Below are positions 10,467-53,072 of a DNA stretch of 64,000 nucleotides, piece by piece (positions within the stretch are counted from its first letter, which is position 1; every line of letters starts with the position of its first letter). Source of the stretch: Desulfobacterales bacterium. GTDB lineage: Bacteria > Desulfobacterota > UBA8473. The position numbers were made by a program, and so were the translations under genes. The stretch is from assembly GCA_016209225.1 (NCBI GenBank), contig JACQWO010000003.1, positions 13,298-77,297 on the forward strand, written 5' to 3'. The notes under the pieces were generated by a model. The model was given only the letters and a program-made list of their open reading frames with translations, did no database searches and was not told the origin of the DNA.

Positions 10467-10489
10467 TTATTTCTCCCCCGTTCAAACCT

Positions 10490-10642
10490 GATGGACTCGT
10501 AAAAAGTCAAAATTGGGATGGCAAAGTAAAAAGCTCCAGATGCAAGGCGCGCAAATCCTGAGGAGTGAAGCGTACTTATAGTTACGCTGCAACGACGAAG
10601 GATGCAGTGCAACGCCGCAGATGGACTTTTCAAGAAGCCATC
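10490..10642 (+). repeat. MITE-like element, copy 1 (153 bp, terminal inverted repeats, 6 bp target-site duplication AAACCT)
   Basis: Identical AAACCT hexamers lie at 10484-10489 and 10643-10648. The terminal inverted repeat is GATGGACTCGTAAAAAGTC, matching the reverse complement of the other end. The two ORFs called inside it are artefacts. Confidence 0.8.
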
Positions 10643-11408
10643 AAACCTTCTTTTCTACAAACGCATAGGCATTATGATTGTGAATGCTCTCAAAGTTTTC
10701 TGCCTCCACACTAAACCAGGTAATATTTGTATCGGCATCGAGCTTAGAGGCTACATTCCTGACCACGTCTTCAACAAACATAGGATTTGAATATGCCTTT
10801 TCTGTAACGAATTTTTCATCGGACCTTTTAAGAAGGGAGTAGACTTCACTGCTCGCTGACTCCTCAACATATTTTATAATGTCTTCAATCCAGAGAAATT
10901 TTTCGAAACGCAGTTTAACTGATGCTTTACCCCTCTGATTATGGGCGCCATCCTGGCTAATTTCTTTAGAGCAGGGGCATAAGGTGGTGATGGGGACGTC
11001 TACCTGAATATATAAATCTCTCTCTTCATTGTGGGATGCACAAAATTTGCAGGTATATTCCATCAGGCCCTTTGCTTTCGAAACAGGAGCCCTTTTCTCT
11101 ATAAAATAGGGAAATTCTATCTCCAGGTGAGCGGATTTGGCATTGAGTTTTTCTTTCATCTCGTCAATTATGGTAAAGAGGGTCTTGATGTTTATTCTTC
11201 CCCTGTACTCATTCAGTATCTCAATAAATCTACTCATGTGGGTCCCCTTGAAATGGTGGGGAAGGTTGACATACATATTTATGTTGGCTATTGTATGTTG
11301 AGTCTTATTCTTCCGATCTAAAACGATGATCGGGTATTTGATATTTTTCACACCGACTTTCTCAATCTCTATATTCCGATGGTCAGCTTGGTTTTGAATA
11401 TCGATCAT
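10641..11408 (-). CDS. folE2: GTP cyclohydrolase I type 2 (FolE2/MptA family)
   Basis: 255 aa ORF with the DUF198/FolE2 signature ...CPCSKEISQDGAHNQR. The ribosome-binding site is GAAGAGGAG. Confidence 0.9.
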   Translation of the reverse strand: MIDIQNQADHRNIEIEKVGVKNIKYPIIVLDRKNKTQHTIANINMYVNLPHHFKGTHMSRFIEILNEYRGRINIKTLFTIIDEMKEKLNAKSAHLEIEFPYFIEKRAPVSKAKGLMEYTCKFCASHNEERDLYIQVDVPITTLCPCSKEISQDGAHNQRGKASVKLRFEKFLWIEDIIKYVEESASSEVYSLLKRSDEKFVTEKAYSNPMFVEDVVRNVASKLDADTNITWFSVEAENFESIHNHNAYAFVEKKV

Positions 11409-11431: not shown

Positions 11432-11584
11432 GATGGACTCGTAAAAATTCAAAATTGGGATGGCAAAGTAAAAAGCTCCAGATGCAAGGCGCACAAATCC
11501 TGAGGAGTGAAGCGTACTTATAGTTACGCTGCAACGACGAAGGATGCAGTGCAACGCCGCAGATGGACTTTTTAAGAAGCCATC
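11432..11584 (+). repeat. MITE-like element, copy 2 (target-site duplication ACTCTT/ACTCTC)
   Basis: About 96% identical to copy 1. It was inserted between the queD stop and the folE2 ribosome-binding site, and its last two bases plus the first base of the duplication form the queD TGA stop. Confidence 0.8.
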
Positions 11585-11957
11585 ACTCTCCTTCATAATA
11601 AGAGGCACAGGAACCCTCAGATTCCCAGACAGCTACCCTGCTTATTACAACATTACCATCGTTGATCTCTTTTTCTAAGTTCTTGAAGATATAAGCCGCA
11701 ATATTCTCAGAAGATGGGTTTAACTCAGCAAAGTAAGGAAGTTCATTTAGATACGTGTGATCTAATCGGTTTAAAATGATCTGGGTTTTTTCCTTCAAGA
11801 TTCTGAAATCTATTGCCATACCAGTGCCATCCAGTTTTTTTGCCCTTGTATGGACGTCTACTCTAAAGTTATGCCCATGGAGACCTTCACATTTGCCTCC
11901 GTACTCCCTAAGGCTATGGGCAGCAGAAAACCCTGATTTAATCATTACCTCATACAT
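11583..11957 (-). CDS. queD: 6-carboxy-tetrahydropterin / 6-pyruvoyl-tetrahydropterin synthase family
   Basis: 124 aa ORF with a CEGLHGH motif, matching the Cx3HGH zinc site of the PTPS/QueD family. Confidence 0.8.
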   Translation of the reverse strand: MYEVMIKSGFSAAHSLREYGGKCEGLHGHNFRVDVHTRAKKLDGTGMAIDFRILKEKTQIILNRLDHTYLNELPYFAELNPSSENIAAYIFKNLEKEINDGNVVISRVAVWESEGSCASYYEGE

Positions 11958-22973: not shown

Positions 22974-23918
22974 TTGTCAGGTTTTCATATGTTTGAATCT
23001 AGAGTTGATGCCCTTTATAGAATATTAGAAGATTGTGCTTTATGTCCAAGGCAATGCCACGTCAACAGGAGAGTCGGCCAGTTGGGTTACTGCAATGCCG
23101 GATTTAACTTGAAGGTGGCGAAGGTGATTTCCCACTTGGGTGAAGAGCCGGCAATTTCAGGAAACAAGGGTTCCGGTGCAATATTCTTCAGTCACTGCAA
23201 CCTGAGATGTAGCTTCTGCCAAAACTATCAGATAAGCCAACTGGGGATGGGGGAAGAGATGACTCCTGAATATCTTTCAAAAAGGATGCTTTCACTCCAA
23301 AATTCCGGTTGCCATAACATAAACCTGGTGACACCAACACCGTACTTGCCCCAGATAGTAAGAGCCATTTCAATGGCGAAGGCTAATGGTTTGAAGATAC
23401 CGATTGTATATAATACAAACGGTTATGAAAGAGTAGAGACCTTGAAATTACTGGAGGGGATAGTGGATATATACCTTCCTGATGCCAAATACGGAAGTAA
23501 TAAGGCTGCCTCTTTTTATTCTGGTGTAGAGGACTATTTGGAACATAATATATCGGCTTTGAAAGAGATGAAGAGGCAGGTTGGTAATCTTAAAGTGAAC
23601 AATATGGATATTGGAGAAAAAGGTATTATCGTAAGACACCTGGTACTTCCAGGAAATGGCGCAGAATCCTTTTCTCTTTTAGATATGGTTGCTGGAGAAC
23701 TGGGGACAGACATCTCTATAAGTCTTATGGGACAGTACTTTCCCAGGTATAAGGTATTGGATAGTGAGGCACTGGGAAGAAGACTAACCAATGAAGAATT
23801 TGAGGAATACCACTTCGCCCTGGAATCAAAGGGCTTTGAAAATGGATGGGTCCAGTACCCCGACGAGGTTGATGGTGGTTTTCTGCCTGATTTTCAAGTG
23901 AAGGATGGGTGGAATTAG
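22974..23918 (+). CDS. radical SAM protein, PflX-like (COG1313)
   Basis: An N-terminal CALCPRQCHVNR motif, plus CNLRCSFCQN as the CxxxCxxC radical-SAM cluster motif. Confidence 0.8.
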   Translation: MSGFHMFESRVDALYRILEDCALCPRQCHVNRRVGQLGYCNAGFNLKVAKVISHLGEEPAISGNKGSGAIFFSHCNLRCSFCQNYQISQLGMGEEMTPEYLSKRMLSLQNSGCHNINLVTPTPYLPQIVRAISMAKANGLKIPIVYNTNGYERVETLKLLEGIVDIYLPDAKYGSNKAASFYSGVEDYLEHNISALKEMKRQVGNLKVNNMDIGEKGIIVRHLVLPGNGAESFSLLDMVAGELGTDISISLMGQYFPRYKVLDSEALGRRLTNEEFEEYHFALESKGFENGWVQYPDEVDGGFLPDFQVKDGWN

Positions 23919-23923
23919 AACGC

Positions 23924-23947
23924 AAAAATGAATGAATGTTCATTTTT
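23924..23947. promoter_or_regulatory. AT-rich palindrome AAAAATGAA-TGAATG-TTCATTTTT sharing the core TGAATGAA-NN-TTCATT with the site at 63736
   Basis: Perfect 9 bp arms. It lies 6 nt after the radical-SAM stop, is followed by a T7 run, and sits about 150 nt upstream of hdrC. It is either an operator or a weak intrinsic terminator. Confidence 0.35.
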
Positions 23948-24002
23948 TTACTTGACGACACGTAACTTGCGTGTTACAAGTAATATCGTAACTGCGAAGA
24001 AC

Positions 24003-24065
24003 GATAGGCTGTAGCCTATTAGCCTGTAGCCTAACAGCCTTCAGCCTAACGACCTGTTAATCAAC
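24003..24065 (+). promoter_or_regulatory. AGCCT/AGGCT pentamer array upstream of hdrC, duplicated at 29236-29400
   Basis: The sequence GATAGGCTGTAGCCTATTAGCCTGTAGCCTAACAGCCTTCAGCCTAACGACCTG ends 30 nt before the hdrC ATG. A near-identical sequence lies before the flxB-like gene. Confidence 0.4.
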
Positions 24066-24094
24066 TAAATAGTTTAACAGAAGAGAGTTTAACA

Positions 24095-24658
24095 ATGATA
24101 TACCAATTAAATGCCGATGTAAGAAATTTTGGGAAAACCATATCTAAACTCAGTGATGTGGATATATATACCTGTTATCAGTGCGGGAAGTGTACTGCCG
24201 GTTGTCCCATTGTGATGGAGATGAGCCATACCCCAAATCAAATAATGAGATTGATTCAACTGGGACTAAAAGAAGAGGTTTTGAATTCTCTGACACCCTG
24301 GTTGTGTGCCGCTTGCGAAACCTGTACAACCCGTTGCCCTAAAGGGGTGGACATCGCCAAGATTATGGATACCCTGAGGATACTTGCTCGCAAAGAGGGT
24401 TATCAGTCTAAGGAACCAAATGTAGTGAAGTTCAATGATATTTTCTTGAACTGTATAAAGGACAAGGGAAGATTGCAGGAGACGCATTTGGCTATGGTGT
24501 ATAACTTAAAAACCAAGCAGTTTTTTAAGGATGCTGATATAGGCCGGAAGTTATTTATGAAGGGAAAGATATCCCTTTCCAGTGATAAAATAAAAGGTAC
24601 GGATGCGATGAAGAGTATCTTTGAGAGATCAAGGGCGTTTTTGGGCAAAGGGGAATAG
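24095..24658 (+). CDS. hdrC: heterodisulfide reductase subunit C
   Basis: Two 4Fe-4S motifs, CYQCGKCTAGCP and CAACETCTTRCP. Confidence 0.85.
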   Translation: MIYQLNADVRNFGKTISKLSDVDIYTCYQCGKCTAGCPIVMEMSHTPNQIMRLIQLGLKEEVLNSLTPWLCAACETCTTRCPKGVDIAKIMDTLRILARKEGYQSKEPNVVKFNDIFLNCIKDKGRLQETHLAMVYNLKTKQFFKDADIGRKLFMKGKISLSSDKIKGTDAMKSIFERSRAFLGKGE

Positions 24659-24661
24659 ATT

Positions 24662-25537
24662 ATGGTATATGGATATTATCCAGGCTGCTCCTCTCATGGT
24701 ACGGCCAAGGAATATGATATTTCAACAAAGAAAGTTTGTGAGAGATTAGGATTGAAACTGGAAGAAGTGAGAGATTGGAACTGTTGTGGTGCCTCGCCAG
24801 CCCATGCTACCAGTGAAGAACTCGCCCTGGCATTACCCTTCAGAAATCTGGTCCTGGCTGAGAAACAAGGTCTGGATAGCATAATGTCCACTTGTTCCGC
24901 CTGTTACAATCGCCTTAAAGTTGCCCATGAGACACTGAAAAAAGCTCCTGAGATATTGAATAGAATGAGCGAAATAGTTGGAGAACCTTATAATAAGACT
25001 CTTAAGGTTATTCACTTCCTGGATCTTATCTCGAAGGAGTTTGGTGTAGAGAAAATAAAGGAAAGTGTGGTAAAGCCTTTAACGGGTTTAAAGGCTGTAT
25101 CATATTATGGTTGCCTTTTGACAAGACCCCCAAAGCTGGTATCTATTGACCCGGATGGAGAAAATCCCACTATAATGGAGGAGATTATAGAGGCATTGGG
25201 GGCAGAATCACCTTATTGGTCTCACAAAACGGAGTGCTGTGGCGCCAGTTTTGCCCTGGATAGAACGGATATTGTCTTGAGGTTGAGCAACGAAATTCTA
25301 AAAGCTGCCAGGTTTGCTGATGCGGATTGCATTATTGTTGCCTGTCCTTTGTGTTTTGCCAACCTGGATATGAGACAGTCACAGATAGCTTCCAAATATG
25401 GTATTAATTATTCCTTACCTGTCTTATTTATTTCCGAGTTGATGGGTGTAGCTATAGGAATGGGCAATAAGGAACTTGGGATTGATAAGCATATTGTTAG
25501 TGCAAAGAATCTATTAAAAGAAAAGGATTTGATCTAA
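24662..25537 (+). CDS. hdrB: heterodisulfide reductase subunit B (two CCG domains)
   Basis: The two Cys-rich CCG motifs read CCGASPAHA...CSAC and CCGASFAL...CPLC. Confidence 0.9.
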   Translation: MVYGYYPGCSSHGTAKEYDISTKKVCERLGLKLEEVRDWNCCGASPAHATSEELALALPFRNLVLAEKQGLDSIMSTCSACYNRLKVAHETLKKAPEILNRMSEIVGEPYNKTLKVIHFLDLISKEFGVEKIKESVVKPLTGLKAVSYYGCLLTRPPKLVSIDPDGENPTIMEEIIEALGAESPYWSHKTECCGASFALDRTDIVLRLSNEILKAARFADADCIIVACPLCFANLDMRQSQIASKYGINYSLPVLFISELMGVAIGMGNKELGIDKHIVSAKNLLKEKDLI

Positions 25538-25585
25538 AAAAAGGACTTTGGAAAGGTATCCCTTCAAAGTCCTCAATCTAAAGAA

Positions 25586-25741
25586 GATGAAGTCGTAAAA
25601 AGTCAAAAATCAGATGGCACAGTAAAAAGCTCTAGATGCAGCAAGGCGCGCAAATCCAAAGGAATGAGGCGTACTTACCTGCACGCTGCAATGACTGAGG
25701 ATGCAGCGGAACGCCGCAGATGGACTTTTTACAAAGCCGTC
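25586..25741 (+). repeat. MITE-like element, copy 3 (diverged, about 85% identity; target-site duplication AAAGAA)
   Basis: AAAGAA hexamers lie at 25580-25585 and 25742-25747. The element sits between hdrB and hdrA, 17 nt upstream of the hdrA GTG start. Confidence 0.7.
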
Positions 25742-25758
25742 AAAGAAGGGGTGTCACT

Positions 25759-27729
25759 GTGTCAAAAATTGGAGTATTTATCTGTCACTGCGGTGTCAAT
25801 ATCTCAAGCACGGTAGATGTAGAAAAGATTACTGAAGAGTTGGCCAAAGAAGATGGGGTGGCCTTCGCAACAGAATATAAGTACATGTGTTCTGACCCAG
25901 GGCAGAAGATCATCAAGGACGCCATTAAAGAGCACAACCTTGACGGAATAGTGGTAGCCTCCTGCTCTCCCAGATTACATGAGAGAACATTCCAGTTGTG
26001 TATAGAGGCAGGCGGTCTGAACAGATACAAACTCGAGATGGCCAATATTCGAGAGCAGTGTTCCTGGGTACATAAAGACAAAGAATTCGCAACAGAAAAG
26101 GCTAAAGACCTGATCAAGATGGCTGTAGCCAAAGTTCGAAAGAACCAGCCTCTTACCCGGTTTTCCATCCCGGTTTTTAAAAAGGCACTGGTAATCGGTG
26201 GAGGTATTGCCGGGATGCAGGCATCCATAGACATCGCCAAGGCTGGATACAAAGTCACCTTAGTGGAAAGGACTCCGACTATTGGCGGGAGAATGGCGCA
26301 ACTGGACAAGACATTTCCTACCTTAGACTGCTCTGCCTGAATACTTACACCCAGGATGGTGGAGTCATCCCAAAACGAAAATATAGAGATACTTACTTAT
26401 TCAGAGGTTGAAGAAGTCAGTGGATATATAGGCAACTTTGATGTAAGGATTCGCAAAAAGGCCCGTCTCGTTGACATGAAGAAGTGCACAGGATGTGGAA
26501 CCTGTTATCAGAAATGCCCTGTAAAGGTTCCCAGTGAATTCGATATGGAGACAGGCATGAGAAAGGCCATATATATCCCCTTTCCTCAGGCTGTTCCGAA
26601 TGTGCCTGTGATCGATAAGGTAAACTGCAGGATGTTTACCAAGGGAAAATGCCAGATTTGTCAGAAGCTCTGTCAGGCAGAGGCAGTAGATTACGAACAG
26701 GAAGACGAGGTCATTGAAGATAAATTTGGTGCCATTGTAGTGGCAACGGGGTACGACCTTTTCGATGCCAGTGTCTACGGTGAGTATGGTGGTGGAAGGT
26801 TTAAGGATGTTATTAGCGGACTCCAACTGGAGAGGCTGATAAGCCCGGCCGGCCCCACAGGGGGTCATATAGTTAGGCCTTCAGATGGCAAGGAACCGAA
26901 GAATGTTGTCTTTATCCAGTGTGTTGGATCTAGGGATCCTGAAAAAGGATTTCCTTATTGTTCCAGCGTGTGTTGCATGTACACAGCGAAACATGCGGTA
27001 TTGCTTAAGGAACATATACCCGATGTTCAGACGAACATCTTCTATATGGATATCAGATCAGCGGGGAAGAACTATGAGCAGTTTGTGCAGCGAACAATGG
27101 AACAATACGGTGCGTTGTATATCAGAGGAAGGGTCTCAAAGATTTATCAGCGAGGGGATAAATTAATAGTTAAAGGGGCAGATACCCTGGCAGGCAGCCA
27201 GGTAGAGGTAGAGGCGGATTTAGTTGTGCTGGCTACGGCGATAACTGCGCGCCACGATTCAAAGGAATTAGCCAAAATCCTGGGTATCCCTTATGATCAG
27301 TTTGGATTCTTCACGGAGTTGCACCCAAAACTGGCTCCGGTTGAAACGGTCACATCCGGTGTCTTTCTGGCAGGTGCCTGTCAGTCTCCTAAAGATATTC
27401 CAGATACTGTCGCTGCTGCCAGCGGCGCTGCAGTGAAGGTTGCAGCCCTTTTCAGCGGTGACTTTCTGTCGATGGAGCCACTAGTCTCAACTATAGATAC
27501 CTCTGTCTGTTCTATGTGCAAGGCATGTATTGAGGTATGTCCTTACAAAGCTATCCAGGAAGAAGAGATTACCCTACGGGATGGAACCAAGAAAAAGCAG
27601 CTCAAGGTACTGGAAAGCGTATGTCATGGGTGTGGGGCATGTGTTTCCACCTGCAGATCTTCCTGTATTATGCTGAAAGGGATGACCGACGAACAGATCT
27701 TTGAGGAGTTGATGGCAGTAGCTCAGTAA
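25759..27729 (+). CDS. hdrA: heterodisulfide reductase subunit A, selenocysteine-containing (Sec encoded by TGA 26338-26340)
   Basis: ORFs 25720-26340 and 26356-27729 share a frame and are separated only by TGA. The TGA falls where Cys-containing HdrA has the second Cys of FPTLDCS-x-C-ILTPKMVE. The true start is probably GTG 25759 (MSKIGVFICHCG), with AAGGGG as ribosome-binding site. The FAD site reads GGGIAGM and several 4Fe-4S motifs are present. Confidence 0.8.
26354..26370 (+). other. candidate bacterial SECIS-like hairpin (GGATG-GUGGAGU-CATCC) 14 nt downstream of the hdrA UGA
   Basis: Five bp stem with a 7 nt loop containing GG and U, at about the spacing seen for bacterial SECIS elements. 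The stem is short. Confidence 0.35.
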
Positions 27730-28280: not shown

Positions 28281-29220
28281 ATTAAAGGAAGAGGCCAGGA
28301 AGCTATTAAAGGAAGGTAAAGTTGACTACATAGTGGGGTACGGAAAGGGAACCGTTAAGTTTAGAACTTCCCCATTGATAACTAATAAAGAAGAGGATAT
28401 TGAAGGCCTAGTTATTAATCCTTTTATAGCAAACAATCTGAGCAGATACCCTGCTGAGATAAAAGGGAAGTTAGGAATAGTAGTAAAGGGTTGCGACTCC
28501 AGGTCTCTTGTTAGCCTTATACAGGACAACAAAGTGAAGAGGGATGACATTGTAATATTGGGAGTCCCCTGCGAGGGAGTGGTTGACATAAAGAAATTAG
28601 TGGAACAAATCGGTGCAGATATTGATCAGGTAAAGGAGATAGATAAGGAAGGCGATAACCTTATTGTAAAAATGGATGGTTCAAAAAAGACAGTTCTCTT
28701 TGGAGATGTGATATTTGACAAGTGTTTTGGGTGTGAGTATCCAACCCCTCTCGAATACGACATACTCTTAGGCAGTGAAGTATCTCCAAGGGTTGAGTTA
28801 GAAAAGAGCCTGAAGAAGATAAAAGAATTTGAAGATATAAATGCTCCGGAGAGATGGAGATATTGGAAGGAACAGTTCAGTAAATGTATTCGCTGCTATG
28901 CCTGCAGAAATGTCTGTCCTGCATGCTTCTGCGAAAGATGTTTTGTCGATGTAAACATCCCGCAATGGATTACTACGTATGGAAGTTGGCAGGACAATCT
29001 CGTATTTCAATTGATAAGAACCCTCCATGTTGCAGGGAGGTGTTCAGACTGTGGAGAATGTGAACGGTCATGCCCTGTGGGGATCACTTTGAGAAGTTTG
29101 CAGAGGAAGATGGTGGAAGAGGTCAAAGGCCTTTTCAATTACGAGACAGGTGTGGATAAGGATGCTCCCCCGGTCTTTACCCATTATGAGGCTACAGATC
29201 CAGAGGAATTTATTAAATAA
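28270..29220 (+). CDS. iron-sulfur protein of the Flx module (FlxC-like)
   Basis: 316 aa ORF overlapping the mvhD stop. The C-terminal 4Fe-4S motifs read CIRCYACRNVCPAC and CSDCGECERSCP. Confidence 0.6.
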   Translation: MENKLKEEARKLLKEGKVDYIVGYGKGTVKFRTSPLITNKEEDIEGLVINPFIANNLSRYPAEIKGKLGIVVKGCDSRSLVSLIQDNKVKRDDIVILGVPCEGVVDIKKLVEQIGADIDQVKEIDKEGDNLIVKMDGSKKTVLFGDVIFDKCFGCEYPTPLEYDILLGSEVSPRVELEKSLKKIKEFEDINAPERWRYWKEQFSKCIRCYACRNVCPACFCERCFVDVNIPQWITTYGSWQDNLVFQLIRTLHVAGRCSDCGECERSCPVGITLRSLQRKMVEEVKGLFNYETGVDKDAPPVFTHYEATDPEEFIK

Positions 29221-29235
29221 GGTAACTACTTAGGT

Positions 29236-29400
29236 GGATAGGCTGTAGGCAGTTAGCCTGTAGGAAAAAATAGGAAATTGCATTTGAGTTGGATGTTCCC
29301 TAATGCGATTAGAAAATGGTGGAGACCGAGAAGGTTCTGAGCGCCTTGATTCGGTCAATGCATGACTAACAGCCTTCAGGCTTCAGCCTAAACAACCTGA
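29236..29400 (+). promoter_or_regulatory. second copy of the AGCCT/AGGCT array, split by an approximately 100 bp insertion, upstream of the flxB-like gene
   Basis: GGATAGGCTGTAGGCAGTTAGCCTGTAGG at 29236-29264 and TAACAGCCTTCAGGCTTCAGCCTAAACAACCTG at 29368-29400 align to 24003-24055. The array ends 25 nt before the ATG. Confidence 0.4.
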
Positions 29401-47119: not shown

Positions 47120-47272
47120 GATGGACTCGTAAAAAGTCAAAATTGGGATGGCAAAGTAAAAAGCTCCAGATGCAAGGCGCGCAAATCCTGAGAAGTGAAG
47201 CGTACTTAGGGGTACGCTGCAACGACTAAAGATGCAGTGCAACGCCGCAGATGGACTTTTTACGAAGCCATC
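47120..47272 (+). repeat. MITE-like element, copy 4 (target-site duplication AAGTTT)
   Basis: AAGTTT lies at 47114-47119, overlapping the last base of the gmk stop, and again at 47273-47278. The copy is about 97% identical to copy 1. Confidence 0.8.
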
Positions 47273-52479: not shown

Positions 52480-52920
52480 ATGGAGTTTGCCGTGTTAAAG
52501 TTACTTATGCCTTATCACCTCAAGCTAAAGGTAGAACGTTCTTATCAATGGCTTCAAGACAGACTCGTAAGAACCTGTGTACGGGAAGATGTCAAAGATA
52601 TTAGACACGCCCAAACAATTCTTCATCGCAAACTTCAACGATACAACTACAGGCAAGTTCACTCAACCACCCAGGAGGTTCCTTACTATCGGTTTCAAAG
52701 GGCCCTTAACGAAGGCAAATCCCTGTTCCGAGAATTTAAAGTACCTTATATATCTCTTAACGGGATACAACTAAAAGTCAAAAACGCTACCCCCAGAGAG
52801 ACGGTCTCCCTCCGGATTTATCCCCTTAATCAAACCGTCTCTGAGTTTAGACTCTGGCATCAAAATCCTGAAGAGCACTCAAGGGGTACGCGCTCGCACT
52901 GTATCCTGCCCCGTGCTTGA
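52480..52920 (+). pseudogene. C-terminal remnant of a DDE (rve-type) transposase (IS21/Mu-like C-terminal domain)
   Basis: ...LQRYNYRQVHSTTQEVP resembles the end of the integrase core, W.YN.ERPH..LG..TP. A Mu/IstA-like C-terminal domain follows. No catalytic DDE part lies upstream, and the gene is adjacent to the tRNA. Confidence 0.45.
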
Positions 52921-52939
52921 CACGGGGCAGGATACAGTG
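52897..52939. other. perfect 19 bp stem hairpin (CACTGTATCCTGCCCCGTG / CACGGGGCAGGATACAGTG, loop CTTGA)
   Basis: Read directly from the sequence. The 3' arm merges into the partial MITE. Confidence 0.6.
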
Positions 52940-52972
52940 CAACGCCGCAGATGGACTTTTTACGAAGCCATC
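52931..52972 (+). repeat. partial MITE copy (the 3' terminal 42 bp only)
   Basis: GATACAGTGCAACGCCGCAGATGGACTTTTTACGAAGCCATC matches the last 42 bp of the full copies with a single mismatch (GATACAG versus GATGCAG). Confidence 0.55.
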
Positions 52973-52995
52973 AAAGTTGATTTTGGGGGATTTTT

Positions 52996-53072
52996 TGGTG
53001 GCGGTGCAGGGATTTGAACCCCGGACACTGCGGATATGAGCCGCATGCTCTAACCAACTGAGCTACACCGCC
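52996..53072 (-). tRNA. tRNA-Met (anticodon CAT), with CCA encoded
   Basis: A cloverleaf reads directly from the sequence. The acceptor stem is GGCGGTG/CACCGCC, the D-arm GCTC-AGTTGGTTA-GAGC, and the anticodon loop CUCAUAU. I cannot tell elongator Met from Ile2 (lysidine) by eye. Confidence 0.8.

Follow-up and report, generated by a model that had tools for sequence, protein, structure and literature searches.

Within the window, as we call the whole 64,000-nt stretch of Desulfobacterales DNA analyzed here, the genes hdrC, hdrB, and hdrA follow one another on the + strand, with a spacer of 221 nt between hdrB and hdrA. The hdrA homologues are named heterodisulfide reductase subunit A in their sources, and the proposal that this gene encodes a selenoprotein is borne out by a TGA at 26338-26340 that aligns with the Cys in FPTLDCSA[C]ILTP of Cys-type homologues. 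In more distant relatives, the hdrB-hdrA spacer measures 23-27 nt, and the Shine-Dalgarno sequence of hdrA is kept there. Two unrelated small repeats have been acquired in this spacer by different relatives of the lineage. The features of the locus are as follows.

hdrC, 24095..24658, + strand: 4Fe-4S dicluster (Fer4) domain
hdrB, 24662..25537, + strand: two CCG stretches
Small hairpin after hdrB, 25543..25572, + strand: GGACTTTG ... CAAAGTCC; outside the MITE, without a U-tract, not called as a terminator
Target-site duplication, left copy, 25580..25585: AAAGAA; a single AAAGAA at the empty site of a close relative
MITE copy, 25586..25741, + strand: 156 nt, subfamily B; profile search (nhmmer) E 1.7e-46
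Outer left inverted repeat, 25586..25604, + strand: GATGAAGTCGTAAAAAGTC; agrees with the reverse-complemented right end
Inner second copy of the left repeat, 25613..25638, + strand: pairs with the right end at the base of the long hairpin (RNAfold); covarying helix 1 and helix 2
Right inverted repeat, 25717..25741, + strand: CAGATGGACTTTTTACAAAGCCGTC; holds the spurious ATG
Spurious ATG, 25720..25722, + strand: in frame with hdrA, 13 codons upstream of the GTG, inside the hairpin stem
Target-site duplication, right copy, 25742..25747: AAAGAA; with the last C of the element, turns an ancestral in-frame TAA into CAA
Shine-Dalgarno sequence of hdrA, 25745..25751, + strand: GAAGGGG, as at the empty site; 7 nt before the GTG
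hdrA, 25759..27729, + strand: GTG start; Sec codon TGA at 26338-26340

A hairpin repeat lies between hdrB and hdrA

When 25500-25800 was used as a BLAST query against the window, it returned three other full copies (81.5-83.5% identity, E 1e-39 to 1e-44) and one partial copy (52929-52976), all five window copies being on the + strand. The repeat is real, far beyond chance, and both this search and the nhmmer profile, which was built from the four full window copies, find a copy where the first-pass annotation had placed one. The distance of 17 nt given there between the element and hdrA is also correct, counted from the end of the element to GTG 25759. The range given for it, 25586-25761, needs trimming: the element itself occupies 25586-25741, and the rest is the right duplication, the Shine-Dalgarno sequence, and the GTG. 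The other members of the family in the window are listed below.

10490..10642 (BLAST match to 10645), + strand: family copy, subfamily A; duplication AAACCT; antisense to its neighbouring genes (a phosphoglycerate mutase-like gene and folE2)
11432..11584 (BLAST match to 11585), + strand: family copy, subfamily A; duplication ACTCTT/ACTCTC; common to SURF_34
47120..47272 (BLAST match to 47274), + strand: family copy, subfamily A; duplication AAGTTT; flanked by genes for guanylate kinase and OMP decarboxylase
52860..52976, + strand: right half of a member, joined to a transposase remnant; the start was placed at 52860 by our own reading of the sequence, and the profile match covers 52922-52972

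The hdrB-hdrA copy has the termini GATGAAGTCGTAAAAAGTC ... GACTTTTTACAAAGCCGTC. In the commonest form of the terminal inverted repeats, the left GATGGACTCGTAAAAAGTC and the reverse complement of the right GATGGCTTCGTAAAAAGTC match at 17 of 19 positions, and the left repeat is doubled, its inner copy lying ≈27 nt inside the left end of the element. The family consensus starts with GATG(G/A)A(C/G)TCGTAAAAAGTC and finishes with GACTTTTTAC(G/A)AAGCC(A/G)TC; the inverted terminal sequence of the family is GATGGNNTCGTAAAAAGTC. We assembled 58 full-length members from the window and from 115 loci recovered by an exact 20-mer scan of species-representative genomes. Most of these full copies are 151-160 nt long, ≈153 nt being typical. 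As for coding capacity, the only ORFs that cross the hdrB-hdrA copy run on into hdrA, by our reading of the ORF list.

Target-site duplications and an empty site identify the repeat as a MITE

Flanking duplications of 6 bp, such as the AAAGAA on either side of the hdrB-hdrA copy, are perfect in 29 of the 58 full copies and carry one mismatch in 10 more (39 of 58 in total), whereas control hexamers taken one step further out agree to within one mismatch in none of the 58. The hexamer differs between sites, with a target consensus of A-A-N-N-T-T. Close relatives, in which the first-pass annotation had suggested looking for the absence of the element, fall into two groups. One MAG (WOUX01, locus L116), ≈95% identical at the DNA level across the hdr region, has an empty site with a single AAAGAA and collinear flanks (...CAATCTAAAGAAGGGGTGTCACTGTG; also given as ...CAAAGTCCTCAATCTAAAGAAGGGGTGTCACTGTG). 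Metagenome contigs L119, L120, and L122-L124 carry the insertion at the identical site; identity to the window was measured for L119, L120, L122, and L123 and is ≈96%. The insertion is therefore polymorphic among close relatives. By our count from the alignment, the copy in these relatives differs from that in the window by ≈8 substitutions, an indel of 3 nt, and an additional hairpin of 27 nt. Its divergence of ≈5% is close to that of the flanks, and the copy has thus drifted at about the flank rate since insertion. The insertion has been kept through ≈4% flank divergence in two lineages, so strong deleterious effects can be set aside. The inverted ends, the 6-bp duplication, and the empty site in a close relative uphold the original identification of the repeat as a MITE, and apart from an identified parent, the element has every testable property of one.

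The copy had also been called the most diverged, at about 85% identity, and hence probably the oldest. The divergence is as described, with 83.0-85.0% identity to the other window copies; the age is not. The hdrB-hdrA copy has 95.4% identity to L042_115, from another MAG, and 94.8% to L002_3768, from SURF_34, and the three have in common the diagnostic ends GATGAAG...GCCGTC; by sequence, the copy is a member of a second subfamily (B). Because divergence between subfamilies tells nothing of insertion age, the step from "most diverged" to "oldest" fails, and it is ruled out by the subfamily B assignment together with the absence of the copy from the ≈95% identical relative. The copy at 11432 is also present in SURF_34, where its flanks are 90-95% identical to those in the window, and of the copy at 10490 that genome has a solo right end of 23 nt together with the duplication. 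Since they are wholly or partly present in SURF_34, these two copies are at least as old as a split of comparable depth.

The apparent upstream start of hdrA derives from the element

ATG 25720 comes from the right-repeat motif CAGATGGAC, which is nearly invariant in the family: across 49 members, G134, T136, and G137 never vary, and A135 is kept in at least 90%. The right inverted repeat thus supplies an in-frame ATG that lengthens the hdrA ORF by 13 codons, as the first-pass annotation had claimed in arguing that the true start is GTG 25759. No Shine-Dalgarno sequence is visible by eye upstream of ATG 25720. The AAGGGG noted earlier ahead of the GTG is found as GAAGGGG, and the GTG with a purine-rich Shine-Dalgarno sequence is kept in L116, L117, and L118. 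The best matches to the HdrA N terminus are 193 aa long, and none of them covers the extension. In 119 of 120 homologues, the start lies one to three residues before (K/R)(I/V)GVF(I/V)C, which is the position of GTG 25759.

The empty site explains how the longer frame arose. There, the frame upstream of the GTG reads ...SSI*RRGVTV, with an in-frame TAA six codons upstream; in the window, the same frame is open and reads ...TPQMDFLQSRQRRGVTV. The TAA has become CAA because the last C of the element joins the duplicated AA, and with the stop lost and an ATG provided by the right repeat, the 13-codon extension was made entirely by the insertion. Comparison with the homologues and the empty site identifies GTG 25759 as the real hdrA start and ATG 25720 as an artefact.

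Gene callers have been misled in the way that was foreseen. Public 206-aa calls that start with MDFLRSRQRRGVTV exist for relatives with the same insertion (P0125 and P0128, in the cluster of the closest homologue). These calls occur only on insertion-carrying contigs, to which P0125 maps, and the other calls on such contigs have the 193-aa form with the GTG start. Orthologues beginning at the extended N terminus had been named in advance as evidence against the GTG. The 206-aa calls are of this kind, but the element itself encodes their extension, so they repeat the artefact and give no independent support for a long N terminus.

The family is widely distributed and its hairpin is constrained

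The 20-mer AACGCCGCAGATGGACTTTT occurs at more than 115 loci in an exact scan of species-representative genomes. The MAGs concerned are labelled as Desulfobacterales, other Desulfobacterota, Geobacteraceae, Nitrospirota, and Peptococcaceae, and further as Selenomonadales, Bacillota, Chitinivibrionales, Porphyromonadaceae, and Baltobacteraceae. Copies are dispersed, with four full and one partial in the 64 kb of the window (about one copy per 13-16 kb) and several loci per MAG elsewhere. Phage records gave no BLAST match to the hdrB-hdrA region, plasmid records gave none to a family copy, and viral contigs gave no match in the exact 20-mer scan. At Rfam 15 gathering thresholds, the whole window yields only a tRNA, and a permissive Rfam 15 scan of 25400-25900 returns nothing below E 0.3. 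We found no publication describing the element in the literature on MITEs of sulfate reducers, on ISDol1, or on the core sequence.

Alignment of 49 full copies gives a consensus hairpin of 36 pairs, in which 96.9% of cells are a standard pair. Fourteen pairs have changed on both sides (for example, CG 25 / UA 22, UA 20 / CG 18, AU 28 / GC 17, and GC 30 / AU 11). None of 500 column shuffles reached the observed pairing values, and sliding the partners by 1-3 columns lowers pairing to 30-44%. Positions left unpaired between the helices hardly vary; by inspection, they resemble a tandem GA/AG loop and an AA bulge. These compensatory changes and invariant internal loops show constraint on the element. 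Arm covariation is no proof of RNA function, because both arms could be sites for the same protein; the constraint could nevertheless include an RNA-level activity that acts at hdrB-hdrA too. By our count from the pair tables, ≈50 cells are G-U versus ≈28 A-C, an excess that leans weakly, and not decisively, to the sense strand.

The core of this hairpin (AAAAAGCTCCAGATGCAAGGCG ... CAACGCCGCAGATGGACTTTTT) is found with more than one kind of tip. Desulfobacterota elements have GATGG...CCATC tips and 6-bp duplications. Peptococcaceae BRH_c4a carries the core within a 187-nt element whose copies are 99-100% identical, with tips CTAGGAG...CTCCTAG and no evident 6-bp duplication; the tips of Nitrospirota copies are similar to these. 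The differing tips fit either one old family that diverged along with its transposase or a conserved core carried by different vehicles.

Search for an autonomous parent

The partial copy in the window is joined to a transposase remnant (52480-52917; joint feature 52480-52976) beside a tRNA gene. The remnant is ISNCY-type, with an E value of 1.1e-5 to NF033594 in what is a weak ISNCY/IS21-type match, and its homologues are proteins of 160-246 aa. Its intact relatives (L129, L130, and L132-L138) are ≈1.5-kb elements that start with TGTCAT and carry doubled AAAAGTGAAC repeats at their ends. As these ends differ from those of the MITE and the MITE profile has no match in the same intact relatives, we regard the joint as probably a nested or deleted junction, which does not prove parentage. 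Loci L149-L152, which have only 114 nt in common with the remnant, were set aside as not orthologous. Upstream of loci with a right-end match only, there are no transposase ORFs, and these loci hold shorter or differently filled variants of the element. Because neither the remnant nor the partial-match loci led to an autonomous parent, the case for a cut-and-paste mechanism is made by the duplications and the empty site.

A predicted hairpin precedes the hdrA ribosome-binding site

In RNAfold predictions, the inner rather than the outer left repeat pairs with the right end, giving a long imperfect hairpin of ≈128 nt after a 27-nt 5′ tail. The hdrB-hdrA copy folds at -50.1 kcal/mol (z -3.8) and the other window copies at -51.7 to -56.0 kcal/mol (z -4.4 to -5.8). 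Folding thus predicts the large stem-loop that had been proposed directly 5′ of the hdrA ribosome-binding site, and the family covariation agrees with it. We compared accessibility in 25480-25830 with the element and with 25586-25747 removed. In this folding model, GAAGGGG has a mean unpaired probability of 0.71 when the element is present and 0.76 when it is removed; for the GTG, the values are 0.20 and 0.18, respectively. The element is predicted to fold on itself and to leave Shine-Dalgarno accessibility unchanged. The hairpin base, predicted at -18, would reach the margin of the 30S footprint, a point against neutrality that lies outside the folding model.

A separate promoter and terminator between hdrB and hdrA would have spoken against a shared transcript, and neither was found: a consensus scan for sigma-70-type promoters detected none on the + strand in 25586-25741, and a scan of 23900-26100 for short-loop terminators detected nothing terminator-like. 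Downstream of the hairpin in its sense orientation comes CAAAGAAGGGG and not a U-tract. The 23-27-nt spacers of more distant relatives indicate that hdrA needs no long spacer, and translation already relied on the gene's own Shine-Dalgarno sequence. Because hdrA has this sequence and keeps it in those relatives, translational coupling across 221 nt is implausible.

In a crude ORF-based survey of the 58 copies, sense and antisense orientations relative to genes are about equally frequent, and between co-directional genes there are about 8 sense and 9-10 antisense copies. By our count from the same survey, a cluster of copies lies ≈18-24 nt upstream of start codons, a position that may reflect an A/T-rich target preference combined with selection against hitting the ribosome-binding site.

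Discussion

Several families of small bacterial repeats resemble the element described here. Correia (NEMIS) repeats of Neisseria are non-coding, ≈100-155 nt long, and bounded by terminal inverted repeats and target duplications. They occupy many intergenic sites, including sites inside operons, where they are co-transcribed into long RNA hairpins, and both RNase III processing and promoter activity have been reported for them. Our element matches them in size, architecture, and placement, but they duplicate TA rather than 6 bp of the form AANNTT, no sequence similarity was noted, and the doubled left end and the host range of the element differ. ERIC/IRU repeats of enterobacteria and Yersinia are ≈127-nt imperfect palindromes that are conserved between genera; they are transcribed as parts of mRNAs and affect mRNA stability depending on their orientation. 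As with them, sequence conservation in the present family extends well past a single species; it differs from them in hosts, sequence, and duplication length and in its doubled left end, and to our knowledge, the breadth of ERIC is narrower than that of a family found in MAGs labelled as several phyla. With the DDE-derived MITEs Nezha, Chunjie, and RUP, it has in common inverted ends, a fixed-length duplication, high copy number, lack of coding capacity, and presence that is polymorphic between close relatives. The described MITEs known to us have ends in common with an identified parent IS; our search found none for this family.

We consider it most likely, with a probability of roughly 0.7 for the explanation as a whole, that the hdrB-hdrA copy is a MITE insertion with an artefactual hdrA extension and a near-neutral passenger of the operon. 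On this account, a nonautonomous cut-and-paste element of ≈153 nt would have inserted into the AAAGAA in the part of the hdrB-hdrA spacer that directly precedes the ribosome-binding site of hdrA, so that this hexamer now stands on both sides of the element. Neither the Shine-Dalgarno sequence and its spacing nor the GTG start was altered by the insertion. The element would be co-transcribed with hdrCBA in the sense orientation, and its RNA would form an imperfect, self-contained hairpin (≈128 nt) with its base ending 18 nt ahead of the start codon. The copy would then most likely be tolerated rather than serve as a dedicated processing or coupling signal, and any effect on mRNA cleavage or stability would, by analogy with Correia and ERIC repeats, be a by-product.

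The copy could instead act as a processing or stability element, as the first-pass annotation had proposed; it would then have been co-opted as an RNA element of the hdr operon, through cleavage (for example by RNase III) or 5′ protection of the hdrA-mvhD part of the transcript that uncouples hdrA from hdrCB levels. The stable hairpin predicted directly 5′ of the ribosome-binding site, the conserved and covarying structure with its invariant internal loops, the retention of the insertion in two lineages, and the frequent position of members ≈18-24 nt upstream of start codons are all in keeping with such a role, and Correia and ERIC repeats have been reported to behave so. However, the ≈95% identical relative without the insertion and the distant ones with 23-27-nt spacers indicate that hdrA does not need the element. 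Drift in the copy is about as fast as in the flanks, indels of 3 nt and 27 nt are tolerated, an RNA role selected at many sites would predict an orientation bias relative to transcription that the family lacks, and Shine-Dalgarno accessibility is unchanged in silico. We regard co-option as unlikely. A benefit from the copy may exist, but present evidence leans toward neutrality over a regulatory role.

A broader proposal, suggested by the conserved core, is that the core is a functional folded nucleic acid that travels on varied mobile elements and acts on host RNA or DNA, the hdrB-hdrA copy being a processing or stability module of the HdrA mRNA; we find this distinctly doubtful. Separate transcription of hdrA and hdrCB through a promoter or terminator brought by the element would accord with the length of the spacer and with the promoters that Correia elements have been reported to create, but the promoter and terminator scans described above and the CAAAGAAGGGG without a U-tract after the sense hairpin make it highly improbable. 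REP/BIME repeats are intergenic hairpin repeats mobilized by RAYT that can sit inside operons and affect mRNA decay, but REPs are 20-40 nt long and lack target duplications, whereas the present element has ≈153 nt and 6-bp duplications. Although the repeat forms a covarying hairpin and all five window copies lie on one strand, we give almost no credence to a REP/BIME-like or IS200/IS605-type palindrome or a small RNA gene in place of a transposon insertion, given the clean empty site, a chance of 1 in 16 for five copies on one strand, the lack of an Rfam match, the mixed orientation relative to genes, and the variable 6-bp duplications, which Y1 single-strand transposases are not known to make and which rule out the REP/BIME and IS200/IS605-type class with its fixed tetra- or pentanucleotide target and no duplication.

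For annotation, the conserved repeats of the element bring several ATGs, and the element often lands ≈20 nt upstream of start codons. It will therefore repeatedly give rise to spurious extensions at the N terminus, and stop codons can be gained or lost through it; at this locus, the correct HdrA start matters for structural or proteomic work on the selenoprotein. For the hdr operon, the two unrelated repeats in the spacer indicate that 100-250 nt of structured RNA ahead of hdrA is tolerated. More generally, a dense and widely distributed family with a strongly constrained hairpin is a candidate for the study of spread between subsurface anaerobes.

MITE copies at gene ends

Two genes in the window terminate at the edge of a copy of the MITE, each at a TGA stop composed of the terminal TC of the element and the first A of the target-site duplication.

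Partly MITE-derived stop codons and the related solo end
Window 10641-10643 (- strand): TGA stop of folE2, the gene upstream of antisense copy 10490
Window 11583-11585 (- strand): TGA stop of the PTPS gene, the gene upstream of antisense copy 11432
L045:6600-6630 (SURF_34, a related MAG): solo MITE right end, orthologous to window 10484-10648

When the empty site of copy 10490 was reconstructed by hand, the original stop codon overlapped the target, and the stop was thus kept after insertion. At this site in SURF_34, just GATGGACTTTTTACGAAGCCGTC and the duplication are left, which looks like the product of a deletion between the GATGGACT direct repeats found at both MITE ends. All five MITE members in the window (10490, 11432, 25586, 47120, and 52860) lie on the + strand, with flanking genes running in both directions; such a placement would arise by chance with a probability of 1 in 16 and is therefore not significant.

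Extra hairpins and a transposase remnant

The copy between hdrB and hdrA has orthologues in a group of relatives (L119, L120, and L122-L124); in these orthologues, an additional 27-nt hairpin, GCCTGTCTGCGTGCAGGGCACAGGCAG, separates GATGCAGC from GGAACCCC. The half-copy at window 52860-52976 has an extra hairpin of its own, distinct from that one, at the corresponding position (window 52895-52935), and the L036 copy may have one there too. Extra hairpins at one position in more than one copy suggest a possible hotspot for insertion there.

Features bearing extra hairpins or adjoining the half-copy
L119:1343-1530, and equivalent positions in L120 and L122-L124: MITE copy with the 27-nt extra hairpin
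Window 52480-52976: transposase remnant plus MITE right half, between rplM and a tRNA gene
Window 52999-53072 (- strand): tRNA gene beside the remnant/MITE junction

The remnant derives from an rve-type (ISNCY/IS21-like) transposase, of which it retains the C-terminal third, and is joined to the MITE right half at about 52860; the rplM-tRNA intergenic region appears to be the site of several decayed insertions. Relatives of the transposase at L129:1-1480, L130:2100-3250, and L132-L138 are insertion sequences of ≈1.5 kb whose two ends each bear two tandem repeats of ≈20 nt (..TTAAAAGTGAAC..) and start with TGTCAT / TGTTAG. In L130, the transposase is encoded by two overlapping ORFs of 139 and 246 aa, and database homologues of the remnant-type transposase are mostly unnamed proteins of 160-246 aa.

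The hdr-mvhD cluster

A second small repeat (GTAACTACTYAGGTRGATAGRCTGKAGG...), unrelated to the MITE, occurs on either side of the hdr-mvhD cluster in the window.

Copies of the second small repeat
Window 23982-24044
Window 29216-29263: contains the stop of the upstream gene
L116:2862-2950 (a relative with a MITE-free hdrB-hdrA site): at the 3' end of hdrB, altering its final codons and providing its TAA stop

Within hdrA, the in-frame TGA (window 26338-26340) aligns opposite the Cys of Cys-type homologues. More than 100 HdrA homologues are called as fragments of 193-194 aa, indicating that the Sec codon and the resulting split annotation are widespread. The 70 nt 3' of the TGA contain no clear SECIS hairpin, only a weak structure (-7.8 kcal/mol, RNAfold).

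The MITE core in elements with other tips

In Peptococcaceae BRH_c4a, the MITE hairpin core lies inside a 187-nt repeat whose copies are 99-100% identical across six loci (L010, L030, L038, L051, L059, and L105).

Example copy of the 187-nt repeat
L030:7127-7313 (- strand): core-bearing repeat, Peptococcaceae BRH_c4a

Its tips, CTAGGAG...CTCCTAG, differ from those of the MITE, and no 6-bp duplication is evident flanking the repeat. The core is also present at four Nitrospirota loci (L049, L104, L061, and L017). Its occurrence in a repeat with other tips indicates that the core is common to small elements with different ends, and the MAGs holding such elements are labelled as several phyla.
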